NCBI RefSeq assembly: GCF_004010195.1
Contig: NC_057718.1
Span: 44,242,949-44,306,948 of the forward strand
Source of the DNA: Chiloscyllium plagiosum
Lineage: Eukaryota
Direction: 5' to 3'
DNA: 64,000 nucleotides
Below, one piece after another: positions 7,248 through 53,532 of this stretch; positions within the stretch are counted from its first letter, which is position 1; each line of letters begins with the position of its first letter. A model generated the notes under the pieces. It was not told where the DNA came from. It made no database searches and saw only the letters and a program-made list of their open reading frames with translations. A program made the position numbers and the translations under genes.

Positions 7248-7601
7248 ATTGCCTGTTGGGACTCAGGAAGAACTGCTGATTTTCGTTTGGTCTGAAGGTG
7301 CTTTGGAGTTTATAGATTCTTCAGATATGCGTCACCTTATACTAGATATCAGTATTGTGTCAGAGCTCATAACTCCAGGGGATCAGCAGACAGTCTGTGG
7401 ACTTTCATGCAAGCTCTTGAAGCAGCTCCTCAAGGCATAGTTGCTCCCTTTGCTCAAACCACAAGTGTATTCTCGGTCATATTGCACTGGACTGTACCAA
7501 GCTTTCCTAATGGAGTTATTTTTCAATACTGTGTTGTCTATCAAGAGAGAAACCATGATCCAGCAATTAATAAATCCATCAGTACAGCAGTAACAATACC
7601 A
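7248..7601 (+). pseudogene. USH2A: Inactivated usherin FN3 exon (homologous to human USH2A exon 61)
   Basis: Acceptor tttacag at 7241-7247. Translates LPVGTQEELLIFVWSEGALEFIDSSDM, then a 1-nt deletion near 7330, then PYTRYQYCVRAHNSRGSADSLWTFMQALEAAPQGIVAPFAQTTSVFSVILHWTVPSFPNGVIFQYCVVYQERNHDPAINKSISTAVTIP. Remembered human sequence: FVWSEGALEFMD...YEYRVRACNSKGSVESLW...YRVVYQERPDDP. Length 354 nt versus a recalled 355 nt. The donor reads ATAAGC instead of GTAAGC. Confidence 0.93.
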
Positions 7602-8239
7602 ATAAGCAAAAAATAAAACATCTAGCTTATTTAACATTTCACATATTTGTTTCTTTTTCATTTATGGTCTTACTCAATGGATTGTTCATGTATTTGATTA
7701 GTTCTTTGTCTGGACTTGGATAAGAATAGCCTTCAGGCTGAATATGAGGGTGCCTGTGGCTTAAACCTCGGTTTTGCCATTGCACCATCTCAGATTTCAC
7801 CAATGTACCATGTGACACATGTGAAGAAATGTCTATAATATTTATATTATATTTTAGGATTTGAAAATTAAAATAGGGGCAAATGAATGTGGGTCTGTTC
7901 TGTGAAGATAATATTTTGGTACAGGTCAGGAATTGTGTTTGGAACAGTGACACAAGTGCATCAACTCTAAGAAAAAATGCAATTGCAGTCAAGTGGCAAT
8001 ACTCCCATAGTCTTGATGCTTATACTGCTGAATTGACAATAGATTAGATACCCTATAGATTTAGCCTTGAGTTCAGATCAAAAGAATCAGGAGTGCTGTT
8101 CAGAAGGGGTAACAGTTTCTTCTAACAAAAGAATTAAGTTTTTAGTTAAGAGTAACAGTCACCCCAGACAAAGTGTTTTAGTTGTGGAGCTTTAAACTGG
8201 GGGAGATTGTACAAAAATCTTCAAGTTGTTAAATTGAGA

Positions 8240-8640
8240 AAAGGTTAGGCCATCAGATTGTGAGAGATTATCCATTCTGGACATCGCTGAAGATAATGAA
8301 TCCTTGGAGGAGTGCAACAAGAGTGAAGCACCACAGGTGACCTAGCTGTCTAGGGGGAGAGAAAGAAGAGTGGAAGGGAGGCACAGATAGGGGATTCTGC
8401 CACAGGACTCAAAAGGGAATTTAAAAATGTTCTACATGGTCCAAAGATAAGAAACTGAGATGAGTTAGTTAAGCAAAATCTTAAAGATTTGAGATAGGAG
8501 TAGAGCTTCTCTCAAATAGCTGTTCATATAAGTTAGTGGTGACTATTCAATAAAAAGTGAAACAAGCTTCACCTTCACAATTCATCGGATGCATGTCTAT
8601 GAGCTGGTTGGGAGTTTTGGAGGAACAAAATAACCAAAAC
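8240..8640 (+). mobile_element. Probable very degenerate CR1 5'/ORF1 remnant
   Basis: GGAGGAGTGCAAC...GGGGGAG...ATAGGGGATTCT resembles the start of the CR1 ORF1 esterase-like region (IGDS motif). No open frame remains. Confidence 0.4.
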
Positions 8641-11600
8641 TCTCTGATTTCATGCAAAGGCAATCCCCCCTCTTTCAGGAAATGTACACATGGAATTCAG
8701 CTGTTTGATAAATATGCTTCTTATTCCAAGTTTGCTGATGCTTGTAGATATTGTGAAGCGAGATGAAAACATAAAGGCTAGATGGATGAAGGGAATCAGC
8801 TAATGTTGCAAGAATGGTAGTGCTAAGGATTGTGGAAGTATTATTGTATTGGTAAAGGAAGGATAGTTTAGTTGATGTGCTCTTCTTTGTGCTATCCTGT
8901 AAGAGGCACTGGCAGCAAAGGCTGCTGGTGACCTTGCATAGCCAGCATTTGTCCAGCTGCTCCTCCTGCTCTTGTTGCTGTTGACCACAAGCAATGCTTC
9001 TGAAATACAGACAGTGTTGCAGCACTGCCAATCGTGAGGGTTCCAAATCTTGTTTGTATGTCACATTATCCACTGATTGGCAGACAATTACACATAAATC
9101 ATTATTTCATTTTTTATTTTAAAATGTTGTCGGACCTGTTAGCCTTTCCAATGTTTTCTCTTTTTATTTCAGATAGTCAGTATCTGTGGCTATTTTATTC
9201 ATGAGAAAAATAATCAGAGAAAACAAGTGCAAAAATCGCAAATTCAAATATTTGCTTTTTCCCCCAATAATGTTCAGTAGACCTTGCCCCCAGAGAAGGC
9301 AATTGATTGAAAGACAACTGGCAATATCAAAAAAGAACTTAATCAGTTTGGAGTTATAGAGACTTTTAAGAGTTCCCACTTTCAATAGAAATCCCACTTG
9401 CTTTCTGCTAACCAAGGTGAGACGTAGAACTTTGGGGGCTGTGGAATTCAACTTCAGCAGGGCATGAGTGAGCATGAAACTTCTGTCCAATATACAGCTT
9501 GTCTGAGTGGCCTTTTTGTTATTTTGAAGAGAGGAAAATCAGGCAAATGCATTGAAGTTGGCCAGTCCCCTTCTGCGTGATTTGTGTCTCTGCTGATGTT
9601 GGATTTCACTTGTTTACTAATCTTTAAAGTAAGCTTCAAAGGGAGAGGCAGAGAAATCTGTATTAGAATAGTTTACAAGGACACAAAATGAATTAAAGCA
9701 TAATGGATCAGATGTTTTTTTGATACAGACCTTTGTTCTATGTTGAAAAAAAGATAGAGACATGGTGTTTCAGCTCAGCAAGCTCAGATGCCACAGCCCA
9801 TGCGATATATCACTGCAGGAGCATTCTGCATAAAATATCTTGCCAGATTCCTCCCTCCATAAGTCTTAAATCATGCAACAAAAAAAAATGAATAACAACA
9901 CCCTTTACAACACTGCTTAATTACTTGGCAAATCAGATGGACATGCATCTCCTTTCAAATTGACACTACAACGTCTAGTAGTCCACTTAGACAGCAAGCC
10001 AGTCTAAATATGCTGCCAAAGCTCAGAGAGCATAATGCAACTATTGTAAGGAAAGGAGATATATGGGAATTATGAACAGATGACCACATTTTCATAGTTC
10101 AAAGCTAATCAAACTTAATGGAGACTTCAGAGCTAAAAGTCAGCAGCTGTTATGGACAGGTGACTACCCTAACTGTTCTATCATAACCTGTAATGTAATG
10201 GGAATATCATTAGGATAGGGGTTACTTGCTGTTATTGGCAGGTGACAGCTTTATTGAAGTTCAGAGACTATTAACCCCAATGGGCTAATCATTTGGACAA
10301 GAGGTTAATTACTTCTATGGGCAAATAACCACTCTGTTTTGTGAATGCATAGCGCTAGTTCATAACTACAAAATAATATCTGGATTGGAACGTAACACAT
10401 AATTAACATTGATCAGTATTTTTTGTACAACATATAAACCACATTCTGGTCAATAAAATTGTGCAAAAAGCAAATTATGTCAAAAAAAAAACTCATGACA
10501 TACAATCATTTTCAAAAGCATTCAATGTCAGAAATGCATTCTAGAGTTTGAAAGGTTTTGAATTATCCTGTTGTTTGTTTGACATTTGCTGCATTGATAA
10601 GCAGTATGAAGATAATTTGGTTGCGATAGGTTGCTCCTGTTCTGTTTTTAGCCTTGTGTTATTTGCTACTTATGAAAACTTTATTTACTTATCAGCAAAA
10701 GTATGAATTCAGTTGCAATGTTAACTAAACATTATCTTTCAATATTTGAACAAAAATAGTTGATTGCAAAGCTCAAATGGAAAGCAAAAGAAATCTAATG
10801 CACTGACAGCTTTTTTTTGTAACTGGAAGATAATTATGGCAATACTATTTTTCCTGAAGCAGTGGCTGATATAATGGCCAGATAACCATGCATGCCAGAG
10901 GCAGTCTCTGTATTTTTTTTAGGACGGTATTGATCACCACTGAGCTGAGGTTTCAGCTCCATGCCAGATTGTTTGATTAATGGATTGGTTTCTAAAAGAG
11001 GACTGAATGGGGATAGAAAATGCAGGCGGTCTGCACTGCCACTGTATATCCGTCAAGAAGTACACACCTCATTATAAAATGGTTATCAAGTATACATGAA
11101 AAATTAATTGGACTCAGTTTGATTCTGAAAAGAATCAGCTTTCAGCACCGCAGTCCCCAGAACTTTCCAGATGTGCTTTGTGGCCCCTAGAGAAGGAGCG
11201 ATGGGAGATGTATTAATACATCGTATTGATTGGATCAGGACCTCTGACAGTCATTTGTAGAGATACCATCTGTCTGCTGTTCACATTCCTTCACCAGAAC
11301 AGGACGTGACAGATTATTAATCTCAACTCTTGAAGTATAGACAGTCCCCTTTCTGCTAAACTGCATTCCGATTCTGTAGGAGATGAAGCAGACCTGAAGG
11401 GTGCAGAAATTAAGGTTATTACACAAATTGAGCCATATGGTACAAATACTGAAGTGAGAAAATTGCCAGGCAATAAAAATTGTGCTGCCTTCCTAATGGT
11501 GTAAATTACAGTTAACCATGGCTCTAATGATGTCCTTCTGCTGCATTTAACTACTGTTACATGAAGGACATTGTTTAAAAAATAAAAAAAAACGTGAATG

Positions 11601-13373
11601 CCAACAGCATGTGTAACAATCTGTTAGATTTACATTAGGAAAATTGTCAACAGTAGGTAAATATGTGTGCTAGCCAAGAAACCAGAAGTTACAGAAAACA
11701 AATTGTTCATAAATCTTTGCCATATCGTTGTACTTAACCTTTTGAAGACTGAACATCCCTTGTAAATTAAACATTCAAATCTTTATGATTGTATAAAATA
11801 TTTACACAAAGGTACTTTAAATTATAATTCTGAAAATTGCTAAGCATAAAGAGCAAAGTAATATACCCCATGCATGAGAAGTGAACTGTGAAAATATTAT
11901 CTCAATTTTCAATGTCATCATTATCATTTACAGGAACTTTCTTCTTACTGTTTTTTGGTCCCAAGAACTATCATATGCTTTTATGTTGTACAATATTATA
12001 TTTCATCTGTTTCTCATAAAGCTGCTTAAAATTTTCAACACCCTTATTATTCTCTATGTTTTAATAAAGCTAATGATGATCAAAAAGTATTTAAATATAA
12101 CTTATTTCAAGAAGTAAAGAAAGATATACTGGCGCTACACACACACTTTCTAAGCTAAACATCATTGTAATGTGATTTTTACAGAAATTGGATTTTGTTA
12201 CCTGCTAATGATTTCTCACTTGGCATAAGAAGGAACATTAAACAACTGTCCACTCAAGACTAATTTCATACTAACTAAAACATGAATGTAAATATAAAAA
12301 TATGTTTTAAAAATCATAACAAGCTTCTTTAAGCACTCATAGGTGTATGATAAACGAATATTTGTACAGAGCCTTCCACTATCATGCTTTCACGATAATC
12401 AGCTTGAAGGATAGTATGATAAGAATTCTCTTAAAGAAGCTTTTCAAGTTTCTTTTTTATTATGTGCAATAATAGATGTTGTAATCTAGACTGCAATGCA
12501 GAATACAAAAGGAAATATACATCAATTGCAATGCAAATCATATTTAACTCTGAAACAAAAAACAAAATTGTTCAATATAAAGAGTGGCATATTTTACATT
12601 TTTACCTCTCTAAATTAAGATGATTGTCTTCATGTTAAAGTTACACAATGCAAGGAGTGCAAAATTACATAATACAGCAATATGGTAAAGGGCTATTTCA
12701 TAATGCTAACACCTCAACTGTCTGAGATACTACATTATTATTTTCCTATTATTCATTAATAATAGCATATGCCACCTCTAACATTAGGATTTTATGCCAT
12801 CAGTAGCTCATCCACCTAGTTTATGAGGTAAAATTGAACCATTTAATTGAGAGATCTAGCTGATACCTACTCAGATATTATTATCAGAGGAAAAAAACAA
12901 AAGCGGGCGTGACAATACATGTCAGAATTGAAGAAATATGTAAATTAAAGAAATTCAAAATTTAATATAAGACCCAACTTTAAATTCACAGAAATGAAGC
13001 TCTAGTCTCCCTTCCATTGACAAGACCAAATGCAGACTGGGTCATCACTTCATGGATCTGCTGTGTCCTTAAGAATGACCCCACCCTTTCCAGTTGATTC
13101 CCATTTCAATAAACCATAATGCTGCCACGCTAATATTTCCATCTGGGCTTGTTACAGTGTTCCAACAAAGATCAACACAAGCTGAAAAAACAACACCTCA
13201 TTTTCCACTTAAGCAATTTACAGGTTCTAGAAATTTACATAGAGTTCAACAAGTTCAGAGCATGATGTCTGTTCACCAGCTTGATTACAACCCCAAACTG
13301 TGCTCTGTTTGTGTTTGTTGACTTTGCTTTCAGCAGAGCTGATCCATTTTCTCCTTTTGATACCTAACATTTA

Positions 13374-13551
13374 CATTCAGGAACCTCGATTATCCAGCAT
13401 TCAATTATCCAAATTCTGGATTATCCGGACAAGATCGCAAGGTCTCAATGCTTGGCTAAATTGCATTATCCACCATTCGATTATCTGAACATTCGATTAT
13501 CTGAACAAAATACTCCCCACCCAAGACAATTGGATAATCGAGGTTCCTTTG
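13374..13551. mobile_element. Tigger/pogo-type (TcMar) MITE
   Basis: TIRs GGAACCTCGATTATCC (13380-13395) and GGATAATCGAGGTTCC (13532-13547); TA flanks; internal repeats of ATTCGATTATCTGAAC. Confidence 0.8.
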
Positions 13552-13689
13552 TACTTTGCATCTCTAGCATCTTTTCATTTAGCATTCCCTTTGTCTTTTG
13601 CTGTAGACATCCTCACCATCTGTTTTACTTGTTCCTCCACACCCTACTATCAACAGTAGAAAAACATCATTTTCAAGCCCCTTACAGTT

Positions 13690-13822
13690 CAAAAGAAAAA
13701 CCGTATTGAACTCAAAAACAATAGCTGCTTATCTTTCTACAGATGCCATCACAGCTGCTGAGTTTCTCCAGAATTTTATGCTTTTATTTCAGATTTTCAG
13801 CATCTGCAGTACTTTGCTTTTG
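13690..13822 (+). mobile_element. Old PLE pLTR fragment
   Basis: TCTACAGATGCC...GCTGCTGAGTTTCTCCAG...TTTCAGATTTTCAGCATCTGCAGTACTTTG matches the 3' end of the other pLTRs in the window. Confidence 0.6.
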
Positions 13823-16437
13823 TTTTACTGTGATTTTGACATTGACTGTAACTTTAATCCAGCACTTTCATTTTGTCAAGCATTGAGGATATTGCATAAG
13901 CCTTTCCCATTGCATTCTGACACTAAGATAGAAAACAAGGTGAAAAAGTATGAGAGCAAATCTGGGAATTAACAGTTTAGTTTGTCCCAAATGGTCCAGC
14001 CAGAATTGAGTCAATGCAGTACACTTGATCAATGATCCATCCATACTTACTTTGTTATCTGCTCGTTGCTTTTTTTCAAAATCTTAACACATTTTAATGT
14101 TTAAGTCAAAGTGAGCAATATGCATGGTTAATGATTGCTGCATTCTGCACATGCATGCAGTTTAGAGAAAATGTGATTGATAAGATTAACAGACAGCATG
14201 TGACAGCTCTGCTGTAAATACCGTGAGGTACGATACAAATTTGTCCTTCTTAGTGAATTTGAAATTACAGGTGTAATACAGCAAAGTACATCTAAGTAAA
14301 TGTATTTTAAAGAAATATTACAGTTATTAGGTGTCCGAGACAAGACCTGTAACTGCAAATGTGTTGATTGATATCTTTATTGTTTCAATGGGCTGGTTCA
14401 ATATAAACTGAATGACCTAATATGTCCGTTTCTTTCCATTCACCCCAGCATCTTGGAACCCTCAATCTTCCCATCCTTAATCTGTCCCAATTTACCTGTT
14501 TAGTGAATTCCAACACTAACATTGTGCAATCATTAAGTGAAGCAAATGTGCTTTCACAAGTAAAATGGTAAATGTCATGTTTTCTGATAAACTATATCTT
14601 CAGCTTGAAAGGTGGCAAAAAGTATGACACAAATCCATGGTCACTAAGCTATTGAGTGCCCTTGCATTTATTTCCACTTTGGAAATGTTTATTGATCCAA
14701 TATTCTACTGCATGATTTAGTTTTTCTTATTGAATGCTATATTACACAAATCAAAATTTTATTGGCACTCCAAAGCTACATGGTTTTCCCATCCTTAAGA
14801 TCACTTATATTAGATGGGCGATTTTAATTGGTTCATAGTTGGATACAGAATGAAAATTCATGCATGCAAAGAGTTCTACTTCCAAAGATGATGGAGAAAT
14901 TATACCTTTCCTTTGTTCAGACTGAACCACACATCAGTCAGTAGATTAAGTAGCACAGATTGCAATCATAAAGGTGGCTCAGACGATTCTGATCTCTCAC
15001 CCAAGATGATTATTCAAAGCGCTTATTACCAAGATGCCATGATATAATTATGTTGGATAAGGCAAAGTAAAATGTGGCACTGGAAATTTTTGGACATCAT
15101 GATAAATATTTGTACCATAGTTACAAAACAAATGCTGCTGTAAAAACAAGAACATTTTACCAGCATTGTGGTTACACATCACACTTATCTTCCAACAGAG
15201 AGAATATCCAAGTGAAAATATTGTTACAGCCATATAAAATCAACAAAAAAAAAACATTATCACACATTAGATACTAGTCACTTAAAGTGTAAAAGGTTTA
15301 AGAACCAAAGGCAATATGTGCACACATTTCTCTGGAAGCTTCCTGTGTTGCCTCTGTACTTCAGCTCACATCAGCTCTTGACAGCTACAGATCAATGCAA
15401 AATTTTGATCATTTTCAGCCTTAGCAGCCTCTTGACCTCTTGACTACGTTTTGAGGTACTTCAAGTAGTTGAATACAATCACAGTAAACTATGTGAAATT
15501 GGTACTGTAGCTGGATCTCCCAGCAGTATGCGGTGACCCTGAGGTCAATACTCTTAGGAGTTGACCCTCCCCAGTGTTTTATGAAGAGATTGGAACAACA
15601 AGACACCACACTGAATAAGTAAGTACAATGCACTAATATGAGTCATTTTTACAGTTACACAATGCTTTATCGTTTTAAATTTTAACCACTTTTTGAGCCA
15701 AAAACAAAAGATCTGTAGTCTTACCACAAATGAAAGTAGAGTAATTATACTTTCCATGTAAGTCTTTTTGAGCAAATATGTTTTATATTTACATGTTTTA
15801 GCCACGGCAATCATAGAATTAGTCATTAACTAATGAATTTGAAAAATCAATTATGAAAGTGAAAATTATCAATTAAATAGCATGGCACCTGCTTTTGGAT
15901 GATAAATGTAAAATGGACTTGGGATAGCGTGATACATTCTGATACTTTCTAAGGGGAGTAATAGAGAAAGATGAATAAGGTTTTTGTGCTGCAACTTCTG
16001 TACCTCAATTCAGAATCTATACAGCTGAAAGTGAAAAAGATATAGGATAGATTAGGCTTCAATATAAACAGGTGATAATCAACTGGATATTTGATAGATC
16101 TGAGTAATTCTGTAAGAGTACTGATATAAATAATTATCCAAGTTCATAACTTTTTAGCAGAGTCGATTTCTTTTATTAAAGCTATAATAAGTTTTCATTA
16201 TCTTTCTGCACTCTCGCTCCACATATTTCAATTGAACTATTTGTTTTGTCACGTTGATGCCAGCAAGATCAGCTATGTAATGTGCAGCAGCCAACACCGA
16301 GTGATACCTCCTGTTGGTAATAACTGGGAGCAGTCAGAAATACCACCGAGACCAAGTTGATTTTTGACTTGCCCATCATTTTGGCAGCTGGCTAATACTG
16401 CAGCATATAAAAACAGCAAGTGGGAACAGAAACAGAA

Positions 16438-16565
16438 CTCTGAAAGAGTCACACTGGATTCAAAACTCTAACTGATTCTCCTTCCACAGAGGTTGCAAGA
16501 TCTGCTGAATTTCTCCAATACTTTTTGTTTTTTATTTCACATTTATAACATCCAGAGTGTTTTGC
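16438..16565 (+). mobile_element. Old PLE pLTR fragment
   Basis: CTCTGAAAGAGTCACACTGGATTCAAAAC...CCACAGAGGTTGCAAGATCTGCTGAATTTCTCCA; decayed hammerhead core. Confidence 0.6.
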
Positions 16566-34087: not shown

Positions 34088-35769
34088 AAGGAGGGAATCC
34101 TGAGGGACAGGATGTACATGTATTTGGAAAGGCAGGACAGATTAGGGATAGTCAACATGACTTTGTGCATGGGAAATCATGTCTCACAAACTTGATTGAG
34201 TTTTTTGAAGAAGTAACAAAGAGGATTGATGAGGGCAGAGCAGTAGATGTGATCTATATGGACTTCAGTAAGGCGTTCGACAAGATTCCCCATGGGAGAC
34301 TGGTTAGCAAGGTTAGATCTCCCAGAATACAGGGAGAACTAGCCATTTGAATACAGAACTGGCTCAAAGGTAGAAGACAGAGGGTGGTGGTGGAGGGTTT
34401 TTTTCAGACTGGAGGTCTGTGGCCAGTGGACTGCCACAAGGATTGGTGCTGGGTCCTCTACTTTTTGTCATTTACATAAATTATTTAGATGCGAGCATAA
34501 GAGGTACAGTTAGTAAGTTTGCAGATGGCGGCATGGTGGCACAGTGGTTAGCACTGCTGCCTCACAGTGCCAGAGAGACCCGGGTTCAATTCCCGCCTCA
34601 GGCGACTGGCTGTGTGGAGTTTGCACATTCTCCCCGTGTCTGCGTGGGTTTCCTCCGGGTGCTCCGGTTTCCTCCCACAGTCCAAAGATGTGCAGGTCAG
34701 GTGAATTGGCCATGCTAAATTGCCCATAGTGTTAGGTAAGGGGTAGGTGTGTAGGGGTATGCGTGGGTTGCGGTTCGTCAGGGTGGTGTGGACTTGTTGG
34801 GCCGAAGGGCCTGTTTCCACACTGTAAGTAATCTAATCTAATCTAATCTAAATCTAATCATGACACCAAAATTGGAGGTATAGTGGACAGTGAAGAAGGT
34901 TACCTCAGATTACAACAGGATCTTGACCAGATGGGCCAATGGTCTGAGAAGTGGAAGATGGAGTTTAATTCAAATAAATGCAAGGTGCTGCACTTTGGGA
35001 AAGCAAATCTTAGCAGGACTTATACACTTAATGGTAAAGTCCTAGGGAGTGTTGCTGAACAAAGAGACCTTGGAGTGCAGGTTCATAGCTCCTTGAAAGT
35101 GAAGTCGCAGGTAGATAGGTTAGTGAAGAAGGTGTTCGGTATGCTTTCTTTTATTGGTCAGAGCATTGAGTACAGGAGTTGGGAGGTCATGTTGTGGATG
35201 TATAGGATATTGGTTAGGCCACTGTTGGAATATTGTGTGCAAGTCTGGTCTCCTTCCTGTCGGAAAGATTTTGTGAAATTTGAAAGGGTTCAGAAAATGT
35301 TTACAAGGACGTTGCCAGGGTTGGAGGATTTGAGCTACAGGGAGAAGCTGAATAGGCTGGAGCTGTTTTCCCTGGAGCATCAGAGGCTGAGGGGTGACCT
35401 TATACAGGTTTACAAAATTATGAGGGGCATGAATAGGAGAAATAGACAAAGTCTTTTCCCTGGGGTCGGGGAGTCCAGAACTAGAGGGCGTAGATTTAGG
35501 GTGAGAGGAGAAAGATATAAAAGAGACCTAAGGGGCAATGTTTTCACACAGAGGGTGGTATGTGTATAGAATGAGCTGCTAGAGGAAATGGTGGAGGCTG
35601 GTACAATTGCAACATTTGAGGCATTTGGATGGGTATATGTAGAGGAAGGGTTTGGAGAGATATGGGCTGGTTGCTGGCAGGTGGGACTAGATTGGGTTGG
35701 GATATCTGTCCGGCATGGATGGGTTGGACCGAAGGGTCTGTTTCCGTGCTGTACATCTCTATGACTCTA
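34088..35769 (+). mobile_element. 5'-truncated young CR1 LINE (HER1-like), RT region
   Basis: SQHDFVHGKSCLTNLIEFFEEVT...MDFSKAFDKIPH; GLPQGLVLGPLLFVIYIN...SKFAD; 228-aa ORF 34883..35569; tail CTCTATGACTCTAT. Confidence 0.95.
34527..34859 (+). mobile_element. HE1-type V-SINE inserted in the FADD catalytic motif of the CR1
   Basis: tRNA head GGCGGCATGGTGGCACAGTGGTTAGCACTG; B box GGGTTCAATTCCC; V domain GTGTGGAGTTTGCACATTCTCCCCGTGTCTGCGTGGGTTTCCTCCGGGTGCTCCGG; CR1-like tail GGGCCGAAGGGCCTGTTTCC; (TCTAA)n. Confidence 0.93.
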
Positions 35770-40219: not shown

Positions 40220-40320
40220 ACACAAACAGAAATTGCTGGAGAAACTTAAAAGGTCTGATAACATCTGTGGAGAAAAGTCCGAGTTAGTGTTTCTAGTCTG
40301 GTGGCTCTTTTTCTGAACAG
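40220..40320 (-). mobile_element. Old PLE pLTR fragment
   Basis: AAACAGAAATTGCTGGAGAAACTTAAAAGGTCTGATAACATCTGTGGAGA matches the pLTR family at 38242 and 23420. A similar fragment lies at ~45435-45560. Confidence 0.6.
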
Positions 40321-40896: not shown

Positions 40897-41933
40897 TTGG
40901 AGATGCTGGTGTTGGACTGGGGTGTACAAAGTTAAAAATCACACAACACCAGGTTATAGTCCAACAGGTTTAATTGGAAGCACACTAGCTTTCGGAGCGA
41001 CGCTCCTTCATCAGGTGATAGTGCAGGGCTTGATCATAACACAGAATTTATAGCAAAAATTTGCAGTGTGATGTAACTGAAATTATACATTGAAAAATTG
41101 ATTGTCTGTTAAGCCTTTCATCTGTTAGAATACAGTGATAGTTTCACTTCTTTCATGTGTAAATCACAAAATCTTTTTTTTAAAGTTGCATTCTCGGGTT
41201 AGCTGTTAACAATGTTAATAGCTAGACAATATGTTGAAGGTGTTAGCCCCCTGTGTTCTCTGTCTATGACCTGATGTTTAGATTGATTCTAATCTAAAAA
41301 GTGAGATAACAGAGTTTTACATAAATTCATGCAGTTTTGAGCTCAGAGTGCTACATTAATGTATGTAGTTTTTGAGCAAAGTGCAATGTAACTCTGCAAG
41401 TACAAATTCACCCCACAAAATATATGTGTGCATGTGGGTCTTTGTCTTCCTCTGTTGCCTGTCCCGAAGTCCACCTTGGAGGATGGTCACCCGAAGGTCT
41501 GAGGCTGAATGTCCTGGACCACTGAAGTGTTTCCCAACTGGGAGGGAACCCTCCTGTCTGTTGATTGTTGTGTGGTGCCCATTCATCCATTGTCGTAGCC
41601 TTTGCTCGGTTTCCCCAATGTACCATGCCTCCGGGCATCCTTGCCTGCAACGTATAAGATAGACAACGTTGGCTGAGTCACATGAGTACCTGCCATGTAC
41701 AAGGTTCCCACGCGTAATAGTGGTATCAATGTCCACAATCTGACACGTCTTGCAGCGTCCACCGTGACAGGGTTGTATGGAGTTGTCCTGAGAGCCGAGC
41801 AGTTTGCTACGAACAACGATCTATTTGAGGTTTGGCGGTTGTTTAAAGGCAAGTAGTGGAGGTGTGGGGAAGGTCTTGGTGAGGTGCTCATCCTCATTGA
41901 TAATGTGTTGCAGGTCACGAAGAACATGGCATA
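40897..41933 (-). mobile_element. Penelope-like element (GIY-YIG, long pLTR) with 10-bp TSD
   Basis: ORF 41356..41736 YSCDSANVVYLIRCRQGCPEAWYIGETEQRLRQWMNGHH. TSD ATTCCAAGAA at 40887-40896 and 41934-41943. Confidence 0.92.
40986..41014 (-). ncRNA. Minimal hammerhead ribozyme core
   Basis: Minus strand CTGATGA-AGGAGC-GTC-GCTCC-GAAAG-CTA. Confidence 0.75.
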
Positions 41934-44900
41934 ATTCCAAGAAGGTTTGCTTCATTTGCTTATTTCTACTTTTTATAAGCTTGCAGCTTTAAAAATTAAG
42001 CAAACATCCCCTCCATCACATTACAAGCTGAAATTGAAGGTGAATGTCATAACACCAGATTATGGAGATGATTACACCATAAAATCAAAAAATTCCCAAA
42101 ATAAACTGCAAAATTATTTTTTATATGATTTGCATTTATGTGAAATTGTGATAATAATACTAAGATATGGTTTTGCTAAGATATTGTTTGCTGGTTTGAA
42201 TGTCACTGACTTATAACAGCAAATGTGTTTTTCTTGTAAGGTAACAGCAGCCAAGCTCACATTTTTGGATTAAAGTCATTCACCATTTATAATTTTCAAA
42301 AATAATGTTAATAAAGTAGCAAATCCATGGACGTCTATACTTAACCAAGAAGCATCATCTAGTAGACTCAGTATGCACATAGAGCAAATGACTATGCACT
42401 GTTACTGATGTGGTCAGAATCCACTGATCCAAACAGAGTAATCAAGATAAGACAACTTAAAACACAGCTAGCAGATTCCTCTTGAGATTTGGATGTTCAC
42501 ATGCATTTTTTTGATCTTGCAGACAATTATTAAAACAATGCATTTTTCAATTTTATTTTAACTTCAAGCAACACCATGGAAATGAATGTTGGTAAAAAAT
42601 ATGCAGTTAAATTAAAATAGCTGACATGCTGTTTGGGGACTGAAATTAGCAATTAAAACACTTTTCTTAATGGAGTTAAATTGTGAAAGCATCTCAGGAA
42701 AAAGTACCTTAGAGTTGGAGGGGGGAGTAGCAAGAACATTTACTAACAATTAATTTAAAGCAAATATATAAACCATACAATATAGCAAAATTGGCAGTGC
42801 ACTACTGACATCCCCATATGTTTGCATATTTGCATATCTGAATGTGAACATTTTTCAGTAAAAAGTAACTGCTCCAACATTTTGAGACTCAGTGATTTAA
42901 TGCTTGCTGAACTTCACCATGAATTTAACAAAAATGTAAAGTTCTAAAATCATTATACCAAGTCAATTAGCATCTGTAAAGAAAAAGAACAGGCTTTTCA
43001 GAACAGATTTTCCCCTTGAATTTGATAATTTAAATAATCAGTTCAGCAGAAAGTAAGGAAAAAATCAGACAGGGAAGATTACTTGTTTGATATGGAACAT
43101 AGCTGATTGTTCCTTTCATCCATTTATGTGCATAAAAAGTTGGGCGGGCTGTTTTGGGGGCCATTGATACTCTCCACTCAATGCTATCTCTTTGCCAAAG
43201 ATTATTTAGACATAGGTGAAGAAGTAGAAGAAAAGCTACTCCTTGACATACAACCACATTGAATAGATCAGGCCTGTCAGGGAGTTGAGAATACTTTTCT
43301 GGCAGTTTTATCTGAAAGATAAAATGTAGTGAGATAAAATTACCCATGTATTTTTGCAGGAAAGAGTAATTTTAACAACGAACTAGGAAATATAGACTAG
43401 ATTAGTAATCTAGAATTACACAGCCAAAGGTTCGATGACTGAAAATGAAGAGTACAAATTCTGGGCCAGGTCAGATTCAGTATGGATGAGGGACACACAG
43501 GGCTTGCCTATCACCCACTCTCCTTCCTATGTGTTGGAATTTACATACCTATCTGGAATTAATTATCTTTCCTTAAAAGAAAACTTTAAGAAAATAAAAT
43601 ACTTTTAATATGGTGTCTCTTTGGCTATTTTTGGTCTCTTAGACAAAATTACTCTCTCTCCCCTCCTTTACATGTCCTTACAGAAATAAGCTGCCAAATC
43701 CAAGTGCTGAAATAGCCTTATCCCTGCAAATTGGAACTGGTTCTACATTCTCTCTTTGAATGATATTGATTTCCATTATTTCACCTTTCTCCAGAGAAGT
43801 GAGACTCCTGAAATTTTGGAGTTAACTACTATTTGTGCTGTATAATGAAAAGTCTAAACATAAGTTCTAAAAAGGTATTCAAAGAAAATAGCTAGGATGT
43901 TTTTAAAAAAAAAGTTTGCCATTCATGTTTTCATTTTCTGTTGGGTTACCATAATTCTGGCAGAAGGTTCATGGAAATTGGTTTAAATGATGTTCATGCT
44001 ATGCTTTCAGGAATTCTGTAGATTTACCATGAAGGTTACCACAGGTACTTGGTAGAACCTTCATAAAAATTCAACCTTGGAATCTCCAATTCATAAAGGA
44101 AAACCCTTTTATAATTTGTTCAAATGTACTGACATTCAGTTTATACTGAATGCTTAATTAACTTACTGTTGTAATATATTGAAAATCGGCCATTGTCCTG
44201 ACCACAAGGTGGAAAGAAAAATAGATTTCATAGTTCTATATGCAATTGTTCCCCAGAGATAAAGTACTTTGGATACTAATTTCATCTCCCTTGAAGCACT
44301 GGACGATTAAATGTGTGATGGCTATACAGGCCAGCACATTTCTCTACCAGAAAAGTTTGAGATCATTCTTTTCTTTTGATGCTCTTAAAAACAGAACAAC
44401 CGTGCAATGCTCTTGTTTGGAATGAATGATGGCACGTATGGATATCTAAGTGCTGACTGGGCACCTGAGGCCTCGAGTAGACTCTCGTTGGTATCAAAGC
44501 ATCGAGATTCTCAACAATATTCTCAACAATCAGATCCAGATCTTTCAAATAAGGCAGCAAAAGTTCACAATGCAGCTCACAGATTTCGTAGAAGCTCCCA
44601 AAAGCACCAAATAATATTGAATGCAATCAACAAACCATGCATTAAAAAAATCATTTAAAAAGCACAGCAAGAAAATTAATGGTAAGTAAATCCGAATTTA
44701 TTAATCTTTTCACTTAATGCAAAAAAGTCTGTCTATTCTATATGGCACAAAAACTATAAAGATAGAAACAATGAAAACAATAACTGTCAAAACTATTTAG
44801 AAAATAAAATAAAAGGTATAAATAAACTGATGTGTAAAAATAATAACCATCAGAACAATGAAGATCATAAAAATGATGAGAACCATGAAAATATTTGAAC

Positions 44901-45014
44901 TCAGATTCCCTCTGGTTCTTAATTAGCTACATGTCTCCCATTATTTGACTCTAACCATGCTGGACCTTGCCTCGACTATTGACTTTGGACAGCAATTGGT
45001 GATGGTATTGTTAG

Positions 45015-45120
45015 GGCCCTTGGGGTACAGTGGTAGTGTTCTTACCTCTGAGCCGGGATACATAGATTTAAATCCCAACTGCCCTAAAGATGCGTAATAA
45101 CAGGTTCATTAGAAAATATC
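45015..45120 (+). mobile_element. Short tRNA-derived SINE (old); related copies at ~49050-49150(-) and ~17960-18063(-)
   Basis: GGTACAGTGGTAGTGTTCTTACCTCTGAGCC...GATTTAAATCCCA gives degenerate A and B boxes. Confidence 0.6.
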
Positions 45121-46220
45121 GGTGATGGTGTTGTTGAGTTCAGACTTGCGTTACTCGCACTCCTTTTTTATGATATTGTTGAATTAATCATGCAAAGCTA
45201 ACAAGTATATACGTCAACTCACCTTCTTGAGTGCTTCCTGTTCCACATCAACCTCTTGCTCCTTCACTGCCGAGAGAGTAGACAGTTCGAGGGGAAGAGA
45301 TCTGGGCAGGGGAGTGAAAGAGTTCAGGAGAACTGATTGGAGGCAGTCAGAGATATGTGGGAAAATCCCAGGGATTGAAAGATCAGAGAGAATCTGACAG
45401 TCAGTGAGGAAGATTTCAGAAAGAAAAGCTCTAAAATGAAGCAAAGTAGATACTGGAGATCTGAAAGAATAATACAGAAATTGCTAGAGAAACTCAGCAG
45501 ACCTCTGTGGAGAGAGGAACAAAGCTACTATGTTGAATCCAATGTGACTTTTCTTCTGAAGAAGAATTTGTATACTGTATTGAAAGTTAAGAGTCGAAAA
45601 GATCTTAAAACCTCTTAATAGAAACTTACCAGATTCCTTTCTCAGTTGTAGAGCAAGAACTGATTCCAATCAGCAATAATGAATATAATTCTGTCTCTAA
45701 CTGCCTACTTGCCACATAGTCCTTTTCCTGCCTGCTCTTTTCAGTGCTGTTGATTGCTCATCTAGTGCCCACCTTGTCTGTTCCTCTAGGTGACTCTAAC
45801 TGCCTTTTGCAGCATTCTCTAATGCAAACTACATCAAATTAGATCATGTGATAGGTAAATCTTTGCTTTTAAAATTAAATGAAAACTGTTAAATATTGTC
45901 AAATTTTCTCAAAAAACAATTCTGGTAGGCTTCTTTTCCTGCTGGTCACTTCCAGTGAAGGCCACATAATGCTCAATAGTAGAAAGGGTGGCTGGCATCT
46001 CCAGCCAGGCCTAAGCTAATGTCACACAGCCTCTTCCCAGCTGATTAAATGCCTATTCCCCTTAGTTAACCAAGCAGGATCAGGCAACAGATCTGGACAC
46101 CGTTCACTTGAGCTAAGTCGTACTACACCAAGAACTTATTCTGAGCCAATGCTATTTAGAAGCTACTAAATAAGTTGCAGGTATAGTGCTTCTACCATTG
46201 CGCTATCTTGGACTGAATTT

Positions 46221-46437
46221 TATCTGGTTGATCATTCCATTAGCATATGTCTCAAAGATTAAGCTATGTGTGTCCAAGTACACTTGGCCAGTACAGTAAA
46301 ACTGCAAATAGTTCATTAAATCAGATATGATTCCTTTGATCACTTTAAACATTACTTGGATAACTCTGGTAATTCTGGCGTTAATACATGCAAATGAGCA
46401 CTGATCCACACGGGGATTTATCAGACCAAAACCAATC
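46221..46437 (+). pseudogene. 18S rRNA pseudogene (5'-terminal ~220 nt)
   Basis: TATCTGGTTGATCATTCCATTAGCATATGTCTCAAAGATTAAGCTATG...AAAACTGCAAATAGTTCATTAAATCAG...TACTTGGATAACTCTGGTAATTCT...TAATACATGC...ATTTATCAGACCAAAACCAATC matches the eukaryotic SSU rRNA 5' end, with many substitutions and small deletions. Confidence 0.95.
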
Positions 46438-48052
46438 ATGTGACTGTGTTTGAGGAAGCACTATGCTGAGAATTTGGTAGTTGGTAGTTACAGTTGGTGG
46501 GTTACTTGAATACCTTCCCCAGGTTTTGGGGTAGATGTCACAATACCTCTTAGTTAGCAACCTGACCAGGTCATGGAGCAGCAGATGCAAGGAGGGGAAA
46601 AGGAGAACAGTTGAGGGGGACACCCTCCCCACCAAGAGAGCAAGTATCTTACCGTCACTTGTCCAAGGAACAACTCATAGGCACCAGAGATTCAAAAGGT
46701 TGTACAGATTCTCTGCTACCATCCCTGTTCTGTAAGGTATAAATAAGGTTAGCTCAGTAAAGGCTTCCTGCTGCTGAGCATGTGATGTCATGCTTATGTA
46801 ATGCGCAACAGAAAATTGAAGATGAGATTGGGTTAGAATTTTCGTTTACAATTCATTTGAGAAATTAAGGATTGACAAACATTGTGAGACATTTTTAAAA
46901 CTCCTAAAGTTGATTTTGAGGTAGTATGAGTAATTTAAAGATTTGGTGCAGGTGCGCTTTAAATCCAGTACACAGTGAATCAGTACACAATGTCGTTGGA
47001 CCAATGACATAGAATGCATGTTTGAGGGCAATCAGATAAATCAACTCCAACAAAGAGAACAAGCATAATTAAATGCCAGTGTTCATATTTCACTGAATCA
47101 CAAACATGTTACAGTGCAGAAAGAGGCCATTCGGCACAATGTCTGTACTGAGTGCCAAACCCTTGCAGTTTTCCCATGTCTTTACTTGTTCTGGAATGCC
47201 TCAGTTGGTCATTTGGCTGGAAATGTATCAAATATACGATGAAGATAAAGTAGTGTTATTGAGTGGCAGAGCAGACTTGGTGGAGTGGGAAACTGAGGTT
47301 GCTGAATCACTCGCATCTGCTCCTCATTTCTAGATTTTTATGGATATAATTTGTAGCTTGTTTCTCTGTTCACTGATGATTCATTTAATTATGCATTTAG
47401 GAATATTAATGCCAATTTAGTTATGATATTCAATCACTTTGATTCAGAATAGCATTATTTTTATAAATACAAGCCAAGAAAGAGCTGTTGGCATTTTTAA
47501 TAGGTGATTGCTTTCATTTAGCATTCCTCTGTCAACAGCTTAACAAGGCATTATCCAATCAGTCTGTCAGTTGGTTAGCTTGGTTGGCTAGGTGACCAGA
47601 GTGCGATGCAGAATAAAGCAAACCATGTCCATTTAATATGATAGTTCATGAAGGTCTACCTCTTCACCTTACCCCATGCCTGCGGAGTGGTTCTCCTCAA
47701 GCCATACGTAACCAATTGTCTCTCCCTGGCGCAGAGAGATGACAATATCTGTAAACATGCACTTGTGTTTAAGTGAACAAAAGCCTCTGCACGCTGAAGA
47801 AACATATATGCACATATTATCCAGTTAAACAGTGATATGATCTAGGCTGTGGTCAGTTATAAAATTATCTGCAGAGAGAGCCGAGTTAAACTTCAATCAT
47901 AGTTAAATAAATTGTGATTGGAGCATAATCTTTATGTAAATATTCACAGTGTACATATTGGTTTGCATAATTTTGTGCATGAAGTTTTAACCCACCTTCT
48001 TTCCTAGCAGAGGTGGTTGGGGGATTAAATACTTAAAATTGAGAATCCTAAC

Positions 48053-48982
48053 CAAGATTAGAATGGTGCTGGAAAAGCACAGCAGGTCAGGCAGCATCCA
48101 AGGAGCAGAAAAATCGACGTTTCGGGCAAAAGCCCTTCATCAGGAACGAGGCAGGGAGCCTCCGAGGTGAGGCTAGGGAGAAGGTAGCTAAGAGTGCAAT
48201 AAGTGGACGGAGTGGGGATGAAGGTGATAGATCGGAGAGGAGGATGGAGCAGATAGATGGGAAAGAAGATTGGCAAGTAGGACAGATCACGAGCTGGCAG
48301 GTTGGAACTGGGGTAAGGTGGGAGAAGGAAAAATGAGGAAACTGGTGAAATCCACATTGATGCCCTGGGGTTGAAGTGTTCTGAGGCGGAAGATGAGGCG
48401 TTCTTCCTCCAGGCGTCGGTTGGTGAGGGAGTGGCAGTGAAGGAGGCCCAGGACATGCATGTCAAGCACTGAGGAAGCAGATGTGGCTATGGTAGTGAGT
48501 CTGTTTCAGGACATGGTTGAAGAGCTTCAGGGCAGAGGAGATGACCTGAGAGTTGCAGTGAGAGAGAGACTCACTGAGATCTTTATAGAGAGAGGAGGAG
48601 AAGAATCTCTTCAGCGTAGGCATCCTTGCAAGAGGATTCGCAGTAAGGTTAAAATCAACTCGGCAGAAGTGAGGACTGCAGATGCTGGAGAGATCAGAGT
48701 CTGGATTAGAGTGGTGCTGGAAATCCACAGCAGGTCAGGCAGCATCTGAGCAACAGGAAATTCGATGTTTCGGACAAAAGCCCTAAGCTACCTTCTCCCC
48801 AGCCCCATCCCCTTTCCATTTGTCGCTCCACCCCAGAGGCTTCCTGCCACATTCCTGATGAAGGGCTTTTGCCTGAAACATCGATTTTCCTGCTCCGCGG
48901 ATATTGCCTGACCTGCTGTGTTTTTCCAGTACTACTCTAATCTTGACTCTGATCTCCAGCATCTGCAGTCCTCACTTCCACC
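48053..48982 (-). mobile_element. Internally deleted Penelope-like element with tandem and inverted pLTRs and 13-bp TSD
   Basis: On the minus strand: inverted pLTR (~48785-48982), pLTR (~48666-48785), putative ORF N-terminus (KLFNHVLKQTHYHSHICFLSA) joined directly to the EN end (RRLEEERLIFRLRTLQPQGINVDF), then a pLTR with CTGATGAAGGGCTTTTGCCCGAAACGTC. TSD TGAGAA(T/A)CCTAAC at 48040-48052 and 48983-48995. Confidence 0.88.
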
Positions 48983-50499
48983 TGAGAAACCTAACACCAA
49001 CCCACAAAAAAAACTTGTTTTTTTTTGGTTGAACCTTTTTTTTTAATCTACATGTTCAGAAATGTTATTACACACCTATGGAGTAGGTGGCACTTGACTC
49101 CAGGCTGCCCAGTCGAGAGGTAGAGATTTTACCACTGCACCACAAGAGGGCACCTCCATCATTACTTCACTGGGACAACAGCCTCGGGCTTTATGCCAAA
49201 ATATCTGGAGTAGTCCTTGAACCCACAGCCTTGCTGACTAAGAGGCAAGAATACTACTAATGGAGCCACAGCTCAGTCAAGCAACAATCTTCCTTCTGGC
49301 TTAAATGGAGCAGGCAAACAATCTGCTCTTGAAAGATTTGGTATTTAGAATGTGTTAATGAGGCTATATTCTGCAGATTTTAGCAAGTGTGTGGATTTAA
49401 AGTCTCTGGGCCTAATTTTCTGGTGTTTGAAACAGTACAATGATAAAGAGAGGTGAGAGTTACATTGCACTTATTACAAAAAGACTGCTCACTGATGTTC
49501 AATTTGGGTTCTGGTAGGCCTACACTGTCCCAAATTTCAAAATAGCCTTGGTCCAAACATGAGCAAAGTAGCCAAGGTAAAGTGAGTATATCAACCTTGT
49601 TGCTAAGGTAGCAACTGAGTTGGTAACAAGTAGAATTAAGGTCTGTTGAAATTAAGAAAAAAGTCGCTACCGGCAGGCATAATTAGTTGTTCCAGTTCAA
49701 TCATGTCAGCACCTTCAGACACTGCTAAATTCCTCAGGGCCATGTCTTAGATTCAACCATCAACAGCTGTTTTATTAATGAAATCATAACATCCAAGGTG
49801 TTCTGTTCTGTGTGCAACTTCTCAGGTAATGTAGCAACTTTCAAGACTGAGCTGATATGTGGTAAGTAAAATTTGTGGCGCCACATCCTTGCAATTGGCT
49901 AAATGCTCCCACCTTTAACTGGGTCCTTGCACAATCAGAAAGCAGTCTCTTCACCCCCAAATCATTGTGATGTTTCACTGCCTTGCAACCTGGTATTTAG
50001 CCTCAAGTGATCGTCAGATCCCACTACAAATGGGTCTCCCATGTAATCAGCCAACTTCTCCTTGACAATCTCTTCCTCTTGGGTCCTACCTGCAGACTGG
50101 CAGGAAATGAAAAACATGTTAAAATGATATTTTGTTGTTCAATTCAGCACATCTTTCACCTTTCTACTACTTCTAGGTTTCTAGGCCGGTAATGCCTCCA
50201 CTACCACCACCTTCCTGTAAATATCAAGCTCTTAAAGCTTAAGTAAACTATTGGTCAATAATGAAGTTAACATTGTAGTTGAAAGTGTATGACCACTGGA
50301 TAAGCATCATGGGAAATGGCCAGCAAACAGACTTGGATTTTTTTTTAAGTAGCCCTTGAGTCAATATTTTCCCATGTTGTGAACCATGTGAGCACCAGTT
50401 TCTGTTGGGAACACCAAGTTGGTCCAATAGTGTTAAATGTGATTCATTTTGACAAATCTGTGTTACGATTTCAAAATTCATATTCATGTGTTCCAATCT

Positions 50500-50862
50500 T
50501 CCATGATGCCACCCCTCACTATTTCTGCTATTTCCTCCAGCCCATAAACGTCTGAGATTTCCACACTACTCACTAATTCTGGCCTTTTGAACATCCGCAA
50601 TTTCAATCATTCAACCATTGTTGCCTTACCGCAATCTGTCAATGCCCTAAATTCTGAAAATTCTGCCTTTAACCTCTTTGAATTTCTACCATGAAATTCT
50701 TCTTTATGTTACTCTTTAAAACTTGCCTATTTCATCAAGCTTCAAGTCATGTTCTCCAATATCTTCTTAAGTTGCTCAGTGTCAAATTTTGTTGGATCAA
50801 GTCCTTGTGAAAATTTTTCAGACAATTTATCACAATAAATATGCTGTATAAATGTATGTTCT
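50500..50862 (+). mobile_element. Old L2/CR1-group LINE 3' end
   Basis: CTCCAGCCC...CTAATTCTGGCCTTTTG...GCCCTAAATTCTG...CTTTAAAACTTGCCTATTT...GCTGTATAAATGTATG resembles L2-clade termini. Confidence 0.5.
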
Positions 50863-51718
50863 TATCATTGCTGTGATAGCTACAATTAAGTATATCTCAA
50901 ATTTGATAGAATCTAAAATATTTCAGGTGGACTGAAAGGAATTAGTTTTATTTTTCAAACAACATTTTACAATCTTTGATAAGCAGACATTATTGGACAC
51001 ACCCAGCATGGCAGGTCATGGGAAGATCAGATGAGTTACTATTTTATCAAATCTCTTTTGATAATCCAGAATGTTAACACATTCATTATTCCACAGTTGC
51101 TGTCTTAGTTGCTGAGTCCCTCCACAGTTTCTGAATTTGTTTCAGATTTCCACAATTTGCAACCTGTTTTTTTTCAACTACATGTTTTCCCATTCATCAA
51201 TTATTCAACTTGTATGGCATTAATGATTTTTAAAAGCACGAGTATATGATTTTGGAAGAAGACACAGGGAAATTGGTTTGCAGAAGTAATGCAGGACTAT
51301 TAATTAAGAATTGATAAGTTGTTATTAGAAAAGGAAATTGGGTGATGGGTTAAACAGACTACCCATTTGTATTTGTACCGTTGCTAAGGGTCAGTTTGAC
51401 CCTCTTCTTCCTGAGGGTTGAGTAATAGTAAACGTTTGCTGGGATCTCACACAGACACCCTTTTAGAATCCTATTCCTAGCTGCCAGTCAAACTCAATTC
51501 TTATTGATGGTTCAACCACATCAGTTTTTAACAAGTTATGAGATTGAAATTTTGTATTGCCTTTTTCCTTGTTAAAGAGTCGGAGTGGAAAGTAATAATG
51601 TTAATACCAAGAAAAGCAGTAAAATCTGTATCCCATAAGATTTGTTTTTGTTTTGTTCTACACAGAAACAAGATTCTAAGTTTGTAACTAATATTGCCAC
51701 AATTAATTTGTTTCACAG

Positions 51719-53532
51719 ACATACAATATTTATAGTGATGGCAATTTGGAGTATAGTGGGTTTGTTCTGTCAGTTCTTATGTTGATGCCTAGAGCCTTAC
51801 ACAGTCTATACACTCAATCTTGAAGCTTATACCAAGGCAGGGTGTAAGCATCTTCCACCACAAGAAGTAAGGACAGACAAAGCATTGCCAACATCTCAGC
51901 CTGCACCTACAGTGTGGAAACAGGCCATTTGGCCCAACAAGTCCACACCGACACTCCGAAGAGTAACCCCTCCAGATCCATTACCCTACCCTATTATTCT
52001 ACATTTATCCCCGATTAATGTACCTAACCTACATATCCCTGAACATTATGGGCAATTTAGTACAGTCAATTCACCTAACTTGCATGTCTTTGTATTGTGG
52101 GAGGAAACCGGAGCACCCGGAAGAAACCCATGCAAACACAGGGAGAACATGCAAAGTCTACACAGAAGGTTAACTGAGAATGGAATCAAACTTGGGTCCC
52201 TAGCACTGTGAGTCAACAGTACTAACCACTGAGCCAACGTGCCGCCCTTTAGAGAGTCAGTCAGTGAATGCAACACAGTGAATGCACTGGATTGAACCAC
52301 TTAGTGCAAATGGAAAAAATAATACAATATGATGTGTTTCATAAAGTTAATAGACAATCTTTGAGCTGATAGAAAAAGAGATTATATTCAGAGACTATGA
52401 GACTGACAAAAATGAATATGTATTTATTGATAACAATTTAATACTACATACAAGGTATGAGTACAAAGTACCTAGTTGGAATTCTGTTGGACATGCAGGC
52501 AGTCTGTGGGTGGTTGTGAAAACCAGTCAGGATGCACCTATTGGCCTTCCTGCTCCTGAGGTTCAACATGTACCAGATAATCCACATAAGCTAGTAATCT
52601 CCTGGTCTCCTCCAGAAAAGATCAATAGTGTTCTTCAGTCCTATAGACTACAAAGGAATGAACTTCCTTTTTGTTTCAGTTTTCATACTGTAATGTGTAA
52701 TTATATAGATGAAGGCCTGCTTACAAACACTGTTTACAGCTATCCAGTGATTGCTGGTAGAGCAGGAGGCTGCTGTACCAGTAAAACAACTAAAACACCA
52801 ACACTTGAAACTGCTCCAGCTTTTGTGAGCTCTCCAATACTTCAGACTATTACTGCAACATAAATCAATGCTTCAGGAATAGCACCAATAATACAAACTG
52901 GAAGTATTTCTGAATACGGATTACTTATTAATAATGAATCTGACCTGTTCTGGGCAGGGGCTAACTATTGTAGTTTATGGTCTAAAACCATATATGCAGT
53001 ACTTTTTTTTATCTTAATTGCCTTCACTAATGGTGGTATCTCCAGCTCATTTATAAATAATTGGACACTGGACACACCTTCATCTAATATAAAACCCAAG
53101 CTACAACTTATATGGAAGAAACCAACCAATCCTAATGGGCAGATCAGAGTTTATGAACTCAGGCAGGATGGGCTGCTCATTCATACAAGCCTAGAAACTC
53201 GGTATCATGACTTCACTCTGACACCAGCTGTGGAGTACAGTTATACAGTTGCTGCCAATAATAACCAAGGAAACTCCATCAGCCCTCCTTCCAAAGCTAG
53301 GACTAATCCTTCAGGTTTTTCTGGAATGGCTCCTCCAAAACTATGTGTATTGCCTTCTAGTGATATCATTGTAAATTGGCAACCACTTGCTCAGACCAAT
53401 GAACTGACTGTCAACTGCACGATGATCTGCCGTGATCTCGCCACAATTGATCTTCAAGCTTTCATGTTTTCTCCACCTTACACATTTTTAAGAGGCAATC
53501 TTTCATGTCAACAGGTCAACATCATACTGTAG
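51719..53532 (+). pseudogene. USH2A: Inactivated large usherin FN3-array exon (homologous to human USH2A exon 63)
   Basis: Acceptor tttcacag ends at 51718 and donor GT starts at 53533. Fragments TYNIYSDGNLEYSG / LEPYTVYTLNLEAYTKAGC / YEYKVPSWNSVGH / KLVISWSPPEK..VLQSYRLQRNE / WKKPTNPNGQIRVYELRQDG...LETRYHDFTLTPAVEYSYTV / SGMAPPKL match remembered human usherin. Lesions: +1 at ~51761, TGA 51783, SINE 51909-52247, TGA 52279, +1 at ~52318, TAA 52861, and further frameshifts near 52360, 52945, 53005 and 53490-53505. Confidence 0.95.
51909..52247 (-). mobile_element. HE1-type V-SINE inserted antisense within the USH2A exon
   Basis: Reverse complement begins GGGCGGCACGTTGGCTCAGTGGTTAGTACTG, contains the V domain and ends GGCCTGTTTCCACACTGT; same family as 34527-34859. 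Confidence 0.93.

Follow-up and report, generated by a model that had tools for sequence, protein, structure and literature searches.

USH2A is a leading cause of inherited deaf-blindness, and the size of the gene is the main obstacle to its gene therapy. Its product, usherin, has been described in human and mouse as two isoforms, i.e., the secreted isoform a (exons 1–21) and the transmembrane isoform b (72 exons) (PMC8268283, PMC7317166), and an inner-ear splice form with exon 71 has also been described (PMC8268283). According to the accessible parts of these two articles, the ectodomain accounts for ~97% of usherin, the PDZ-binding motif of the tail binds whirlin and PDZD7, and whirlin anchors usherin and ADGRV1 through their cytoplasmic regions; no tail-only usherin isoform is described in those parts. 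USH2A is a single-copy neighbour of the ERR-gamma gene, as stated in the accessible text of PMC7617844. Furthermore, unitary pseudogenes of sensory genes are known, for example from the loss of the sws opsin in cartilaginous fishes (PMC12361510, in part), and Ush2a of the cavefish Sinocyclocheilus anshuiensis carries two amino-acid changes that the authors tie to sensory reduction (PMC4698820, in part). The present analysis concerns a window of 64,000 nucleotides from the bamboo shark Chiloscyllium plagiosum (contig C9, positions 44242949–44306948); features inside the window are numbered from its first base, and the USH2A locus as a whole is numbered on C9. The window almost certainly belongs to the sole, ancestral copy of USH2A, which has undergone a unitary loss of its ectodomain and can no longer give rise to the ~5,200-residue transmembrane usherin or to the short secreted isoform.

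Decay of the USH2A ectodomain

A preliminary description of the window, made from the letters alone, had reported two usherin FN3 exons; both are present on the same strand and in the expected order, and a third exon lying between them had been missed. The exons were found by tblastn with usherins, and lesions were called by frameshift-aware alignment to the 5221-residue basking-shark usherin, to which all three pseudo-exons, located on the plus strand, are colinear. Pseudo-exon A (7248–7601; residues ~3922–4039, FN3; 88/122 identical) keeps its AG acceptor and carries a single frameshift at ~7330 and a dead splice donor, with AT instead of GT at 7602–7603. Pseudo-exon B (42240–42446; residues 4040–4115; 43/68 identical) carries two frameshifts, has seven codons deleted, and has lost both splice sites (acceptor AA, donor AT). 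Pseudo-exon C (51719–53532; residues ~4116–4620, several FN3 repeats; 55/68 and 303/426 identical; tblastn E = 4e-140) retains its acceptor and donor and contains three in-frame stops, i.e., TGA at 51783–51785 (residue 4137), TGA at 52279–52281 (residue 4189, beside a net one-codon deletion) and TAA at 52861–52863 (residue 4390), together with 20 deleted codons and six frameshifts (51758, 52315, 52364, 52942, 53003, and 53485). In human numbering, exons A and C presumably correspond to exons 61 and 63, and the numbers 66–72 used below for the 3′ exons are assumed likewise.

Exon C is also interrupted by a repeat of 342 bases on the minus strand (51906–52247) that resembles a short interspersed nuclear element (SINE), presumably a tRNA-derived shark SINE, and has 68 matches across the surrounding 864 kb. 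Against a local consensus built from 36 other long copies, the repeat shows 15% divergence (median of those copies, 10%), indicating that the insertion is old; no target-site duplication could be resolved. Across the three exons, the damage adds up to 3 stops, 9 frameshifts, and the SINE, with 3 splice sites dead. The earlier account of exons A and C (acceptors in place, at least 3 stops, at least 6 frameshifts, one dead donor, and the SINE) is borne out, the two exons having 3 stops and 7 frameshifts. It had been argued that the stops and the SINE are not errors of the homopolymer type; all stops fall outside homopolymer runs, three of the window frameshifts lie in such runs, and the other frameshifts lie outside. 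The retained exon order and introns show an unprocessed genomic pseudogene, as had been proposed, and a retrocopy is ruled out by introns of up to 44 kb. As a separate observation, an exact 11-base direct repeat (52262–52286) spans the TGA at 52279, which suggests that this stop arose via slippage or small deletions rather than by a point change.

The complete USH2A locus occupies C9:43.41–44.40 Mb, where 72 colinear segments, which do not correspond one for one to exons and whose ends were trimmed before lesions were counted, align with 4977 of the 5221 residues of the basking-shark protein. Lesions are found in 51 of the 72 segments; together these hold 52 stops and 54 frameshifts, and the decay begins as early as codon 12. 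Residues 1–4812 contain more than 100 lesions, and more than 90% of the length of the gene is decayed. Residues 2914–2970 were not found at the locus, and residues 252–303 fall outside the DNA analysed. The domain order is colinear from laminin N through laminin EGF, laminin G, and the FN3 array to the transmembrane segment and PDZ motif, and the closest protein matches are the sawshark usherin-like protein (65%) and basking-shark usherin. The preliminary description had considered a loss of at least the long isoform; the loss is wider, since lesions run from the stop at codon 12 through the laminin domains, and the short N-terminal isoform is therefore dead as well.

The locus lies at the ancestral site of USH2A. 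Exons of an ERR-family gene lie on the same strand at C9:43.21 Mb, ~200 kb upstream, and this gene is presumably, given the synteny cited above, the gamma paralog ESRRG. Downstream, minus-strand exons at C9:44.408–44.418 Mb may belong to a KCTD3-like gene, KCTD3 being the other neighbour expected earlier; their third Atlas match is the SHKBP1 family at 0.89, which is below 0.9 and is a lead only, and a search with the BTB_2 profile gave no match at these exons. Full-length usherins are found in two lamniform sharks, Cetorhinus maximus (the basking shark; XP_078412490.1, 5221 residues) and Carcharodon carcharias (XP_041063177.1, 5227 residues), and in the chimaera Callorhinchus milii (XP_042189091.1, 5264 residues), and the sawshark model is open across exon C; the loss is accordingly lineage-restricted. 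The sawshark usherin-like model comprises 1201 residues with odd ends and keeps 91–100% of conserved residues in the segments of residues 4040–5120; the gene itself is probably intact and its annotation fragmented.

The spared 3′ end and a putative mini-usherin

The earlier classification of USH2A as a pseudogene applies to the ectodomain part and not to the whole gene, since seven exons at the 3′ end, located beyond the window and comprising the membrane anchor, the tail, the PDZ motif, and a 24-residue alternative exon, are lesion-free over 23 kb. A single stop at residue 4812 is followed by 409 open codons up to the end, the next longest lesion-free run being 170 residues, and a permutation test of the terminal run gives P = 1.8e-4. 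The last six constitutive exons contain no lesions against 8.2 expected (P = 2.7e-4) and keep 228/259 conserved residues against 2549/3435 upstream, conserved residues being those common to basking shark and chimaera. All 15 splice sites of the last eight exons are AG/GT, and the alternative exon, which we take to be the exon-71 splice form of the inner ear, is identical to the sawshark exon at 23 of 24 residues. The sole exonic indel listed for organism C is a 6-base in-frame insertion in exon 71.

The spliced frame matches letter for letter a 356-residue RefSeq usherin-like model of C. plagiosum that starts at the methionine of exon 66; no usherin model other than this tail was found for the bamboo shark. 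In-frame ATGs would give products of 380, 357, 349, 289, and 219 residues, of which the last starts at the exon 69 methionine, whose Kozak context is strong (G at both −3 and +4). The predicted 219-residue protein comprises ~40 residues outside the membrane, one helix (residues 44–62, with positive charges inside), and a tail of ~155 residues ending in DTQL; its predicted core is identical to the Stegostoma model at 209/219 positions, and no relative better than E = 0.77 was found in the PDB. As judged from these sequence features, a functional tail in the form of a putative 219-residue mini-usherin has probably been kept.

The following mechanism may be proposed. Selection on the ectodomain would have ended, while an internal start kept the mini-usherin, whose single membrane helix may act as its own signal-anchor and leave the tail inside. 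The link function would thereby have been dropped and the scaffold-anchoring function kept; by analogy with known usherin biology, the stub may anchor whirlin and PDZD7 at the hair-cell or photoreceptor membrane, and any extracellular link would then have to come from ADGRV1. A benthic, dim-light ancestry could be guessed to be the cause of the relaxed selection.

Tail-only usherin models in other lineages

Information on other lineages has been obtained only from automatic annotations (RefSeq/GenBank). Eighteen proteins shorter than 660 residues match the tail region, six of them from elasmobranchs and two from bichirs, and protein clusters add Hemitrygon and two Mobula species. Tail-only models of 134–297 residues are thus available for eight other elasmobranch species (Stegostoma, Rhincodon, C. 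punctatum, Hypanus, Hemitrygon, the two Mobula species, and Narcine) and two bichir species (Polypterus and Erpetoichthys). Four models start at the same exon 69 methionine, two rays start at most 4 codons away, and the bichirs start one exon earlier, in exon 68. All carpet-shark and ray models that were aligned have an open stub. Furthermore, in the four full-length ray stubs, leucine replaces a conserved tyrosine that long usherins have immediately ahead of the stalk, as would be expected if the upstream FN3 fold were unconstrained. No long usherins of rays, carpet sharks, or bichirs were found among proteins of 684–2000 and 3300–5000 residues, the ranges of 2000–3300 and above 5000 residues not being covered. 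Unnamed exon-63 fragments, 37–54% identical to basking shark, were not used.

What weighs against a biological reading of these records is that 10 of the 18 short matches are unnamed or derive from other species, human, camel, and carp among them, and resemble ordinary annotation fragments, so that short records alone prove nothing. The loss nevertheless probably extends beyond C. plagiosum. That usherin was cut to the same anchor-plus-tail protein at least three times independently, i.e., in carpet sharks, in the stingrays, devil rays, and electric rays, and in bichirs, is a tentative proposal from the annotated sequences, with chances somewhat short of even, and convergence in rays and bichirs is to be regarded as a strong lead and not as a result. 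If true, it would imply an ancient, undescribed internal USH2A isoform with an ectodomain-independent job and would make these animals natural models of vertebrate vision and hearing in the absence of the 5,000-residue link. It would also constitute a convergent partial gene loss that is missed by presence/absence screens, because the databases list the gene as present.

Alternative explanations and comparison with known systems

Two alternatives would deny that the single ancestral gene has decayed. The lesions could be errors of assembly or sequencing, which has a negligible probability: three window frameshifts lie in homopolymer runs and N gaps occur at the locus, whereas about one quarter of the conserved residues are replaced too and the neighbouring and partner genes are open in the same assembly. 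Moreover, reads were checked with window positions 52260–53540 as query (1281 bases, 7 lesions, and 143 sampled words; the SINE and exons A and B lie outside it), part or all of which is contained in 20 of the 24 runs listed, no RNA run being listed among them. The share of words is 1.00 in two runs, both possibly of the source DNA, and 0.85–0.90 in three runs of another study, one of which reaches 0.90; as seven false lesions would cost ~17% of 31-mers by arithmetic, this indirect check indicates that the exon C lesions downstream of the SINE are not assembly errors. The other alternative, a dead duplicate with a working USH2A elsewhere, absent from the assembly or scattered in it, is hardly plausible. 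The assembly comprises 101,977 contigs, and one usherin exon (residues 340–404) lies on the unplaced contig C96568 (17790–17999); this exon, however, has no twin on C9 and fits an N gap near 43,526,540, at the expected place. No second USH2A locus was found genome-wide with exon C DNA, the 1885-residue C-terminal usherin, Laminin_N, residues 1–637, or the tail as queries, residues 638–3300 not being queried; the remaining matches in the searches with C-terminal usherin, residues 1–637, and the tail were all weak. The unqueried residues 638–3300, where a paralog could be sought, and the stricter first look in the searches with C-terminal usherin and residues 1–637 count against single-copy status. 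Nevertheless, the dead copy occupies the ancestral site beside ESRRG, and the only usherin model found for the species is the tail. Between the unitary loss and the dead duplicate that the preliminary description had left side by side, this single lesioned syntenic locus points to the former.

The other two alternatives concern the spared end. It is unlikely, on balance, that the whole gene is dead and that its last exons persist through constraint on the DNA itself (regulatory elements near ESRRG/KCTD3), through slow local mutation, or because their function outlasted that of the ectodomain; several observations nonetheless weigh on that side and against a retained mini-usherin. Retention is uneven among the dead exons (χ2 = 132 on 65 degrees of freedom), which implies that DNA-level constraint can spare exons at USH2A, and five upstream exons (C9:43593358–43593552, 43612071–43612229, 43681620–43681751, 43809078–43809284, and 44063689–44063814) keep 88–95% of conserved residues, far beyond the neutral-decay prediction. 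These five exons, the first of which keeps 61/65 conserved residues (basking shark and chimaera agree at 65/65 there), are candidate exonic regulatory elements, perhaps of ESRRG. Furthermore, the tail was chosen post hoc, and the P of such a gap at any position is 0.013; exon versus intron divergence to organism B (3/306 versus 22/885 listed) is non-significant (P = 0.16), would be equal in the worst case, and is underpowered, and the exon 71 intron differs by only ~2–2.6% from organisms B and C. Exon 66 has one stop and exon 67 keeps 41/52 conserved residues, giving the look of a graded, later decay. No CpG island over exons 66–70 (C9:44.368–44.386 Mb) and no internal promoter were found, and two RNA runs of unstated tissue, one sampled at ~2/100, yielded no exon 71–72 reads, which is uninformative either way. 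By contrast, the spared upstream exons are isolated and one of the five carries a stop, whereas the 3′ end consists of seven consecutive exons over 23 kb in which the reading frame, the splice sites, the stop codon, and the PDZ motif are all preserved. Of the 56 upstream segments that span at most 80 residues, 14 alone are lesion-free, and the same stub is open across the aligned carpet-shark and ray models. A longer retained product of 289–380 residues with one or two FN3 domains, such as the 356-residue RefSeq model, is very improbable: that model is the genomic frame from the exon 66 methionine, several longer in-frame ATGs exist, and bichir models begin at the exon 68 position, but exon 67 is about as worn as the dead exons, the Stegostoma, C. 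punctatum, and ray models begin in exon 69, and FN3 domains without a signal peptide would be hard to place outside. Unitary ectodomain loss with a retained mini-usherin is therefore considered the best overall explanation, and a fairly likely one.

With regard to the age of this ectodomain loss, a rough neutral simulation reproduces the 52 stops at ~0.10 substitutions per site, whereas ~0.12–0.14 is needed to account for the lost residues. In the intron next to exon 71, the listed differences to organism B number 22 over 885 sites, which suggests that the decay is several times older than the split from organism B. The share of exon C words in organism B (0.22–0.39) is as predicted by at least 3% divergence and is consistent with neutral change in both lineages. 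Selection on the ectodomain would have ended long ago (~0.10–0.13 substitutions per site), and probably earlier than the divergence of bamboo sharks from the zebra and whale sharks.

A co-loss of partner genes, which had been suggested as a check, was not observed in the exons sampled. All eight sampled Calx-beta exons of the ADGRV1-like gene are open, with frames of 80–297 residues; in a whirlin-like gene, both of the regions sampled (the first exon and PDZ1) are open; and the exons of the neighbouring ERR-family gene are open too. The labels ADGRV1 and WHRN are assumed from domain content, and PDZD7 was not singled out among 148 matches in a PDZ search. A frameshift suspected after whirlin exon 1 was rejected, as a GTAAGT donor ends the exon and PDZ1 is open 5 kb further. 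The whirlin-like first exon stops before PDZ1 (C30:20752300–20754300 and C30:20748163–20748378), with an intron of ~5 kb between them; in human whirlin, the two regions presumably form one exon. Other features of the window include an intronic fragment of eukaryotic small-subunit rRNA (46272–46578; 55.4 bits, model positions 57–388) and open frames at 4788–5312 (minus), 34847–35569 (plus), and 58678–59361 (minus), which resemble retroelement remnants and are presumably Penelope/GIY-YIG-like and CR1-like; a phage collection gave no match.

No published report of this USH2A loss was found in the accessible literature, including that on sharks, elasmobranchs, and Polypterus, although subscription papers, bioRxiv supplements, or other shark gene-loss tables could list it, and neither "USH2A" nor "usherin" occurs in three supplements of one bamboo-shark genome paper (PMC7677710). 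Since the ectodomain is lost and the tail and apparently ADGRV1 and whirlin are kept in an animal that is kept and bred in the laboratory, the roles of the ectodomain and of the tail alone become testable.

Compared with the intact usherins of Cetorhinus, Carcharodon, and Callorhinchus, the bamboo-shark locus is alike in domain order, colinear exons, identity (55–94% per segment), the terminal DTQL, and the neighbour ESRRG, whereas its residues 1–4812 are lesioned and only the last 409 codons are open. Both human and mouse isoforms are impossible in the bamboo shark, which keeps the transmembrane helix, cytoplasmic tail, PDZ-binding motif, and 24-residue alternative exon; the proposed product would lack the ~97% that is ectodomain. 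The short usherin models of other elasmobranchs and bichirs are alike in their tail-only content, the loss there being deduced from annotation. Both the bamboo shark and S. anshuiensis, as far as the accessible text on the latter goes, show a natural Ush2a change in a fish, the cavefish gene being substituted and not decayed. Finally, in comparison with the sensory unitary pseudogenes in the accessible part of the opsin study, the single orthologous locus, the many lesions, and the intact relatives are shared, whereas the loss in the bamboo shark is partial, with a 3′ piece apparently under selection and the sampled partner exons open.

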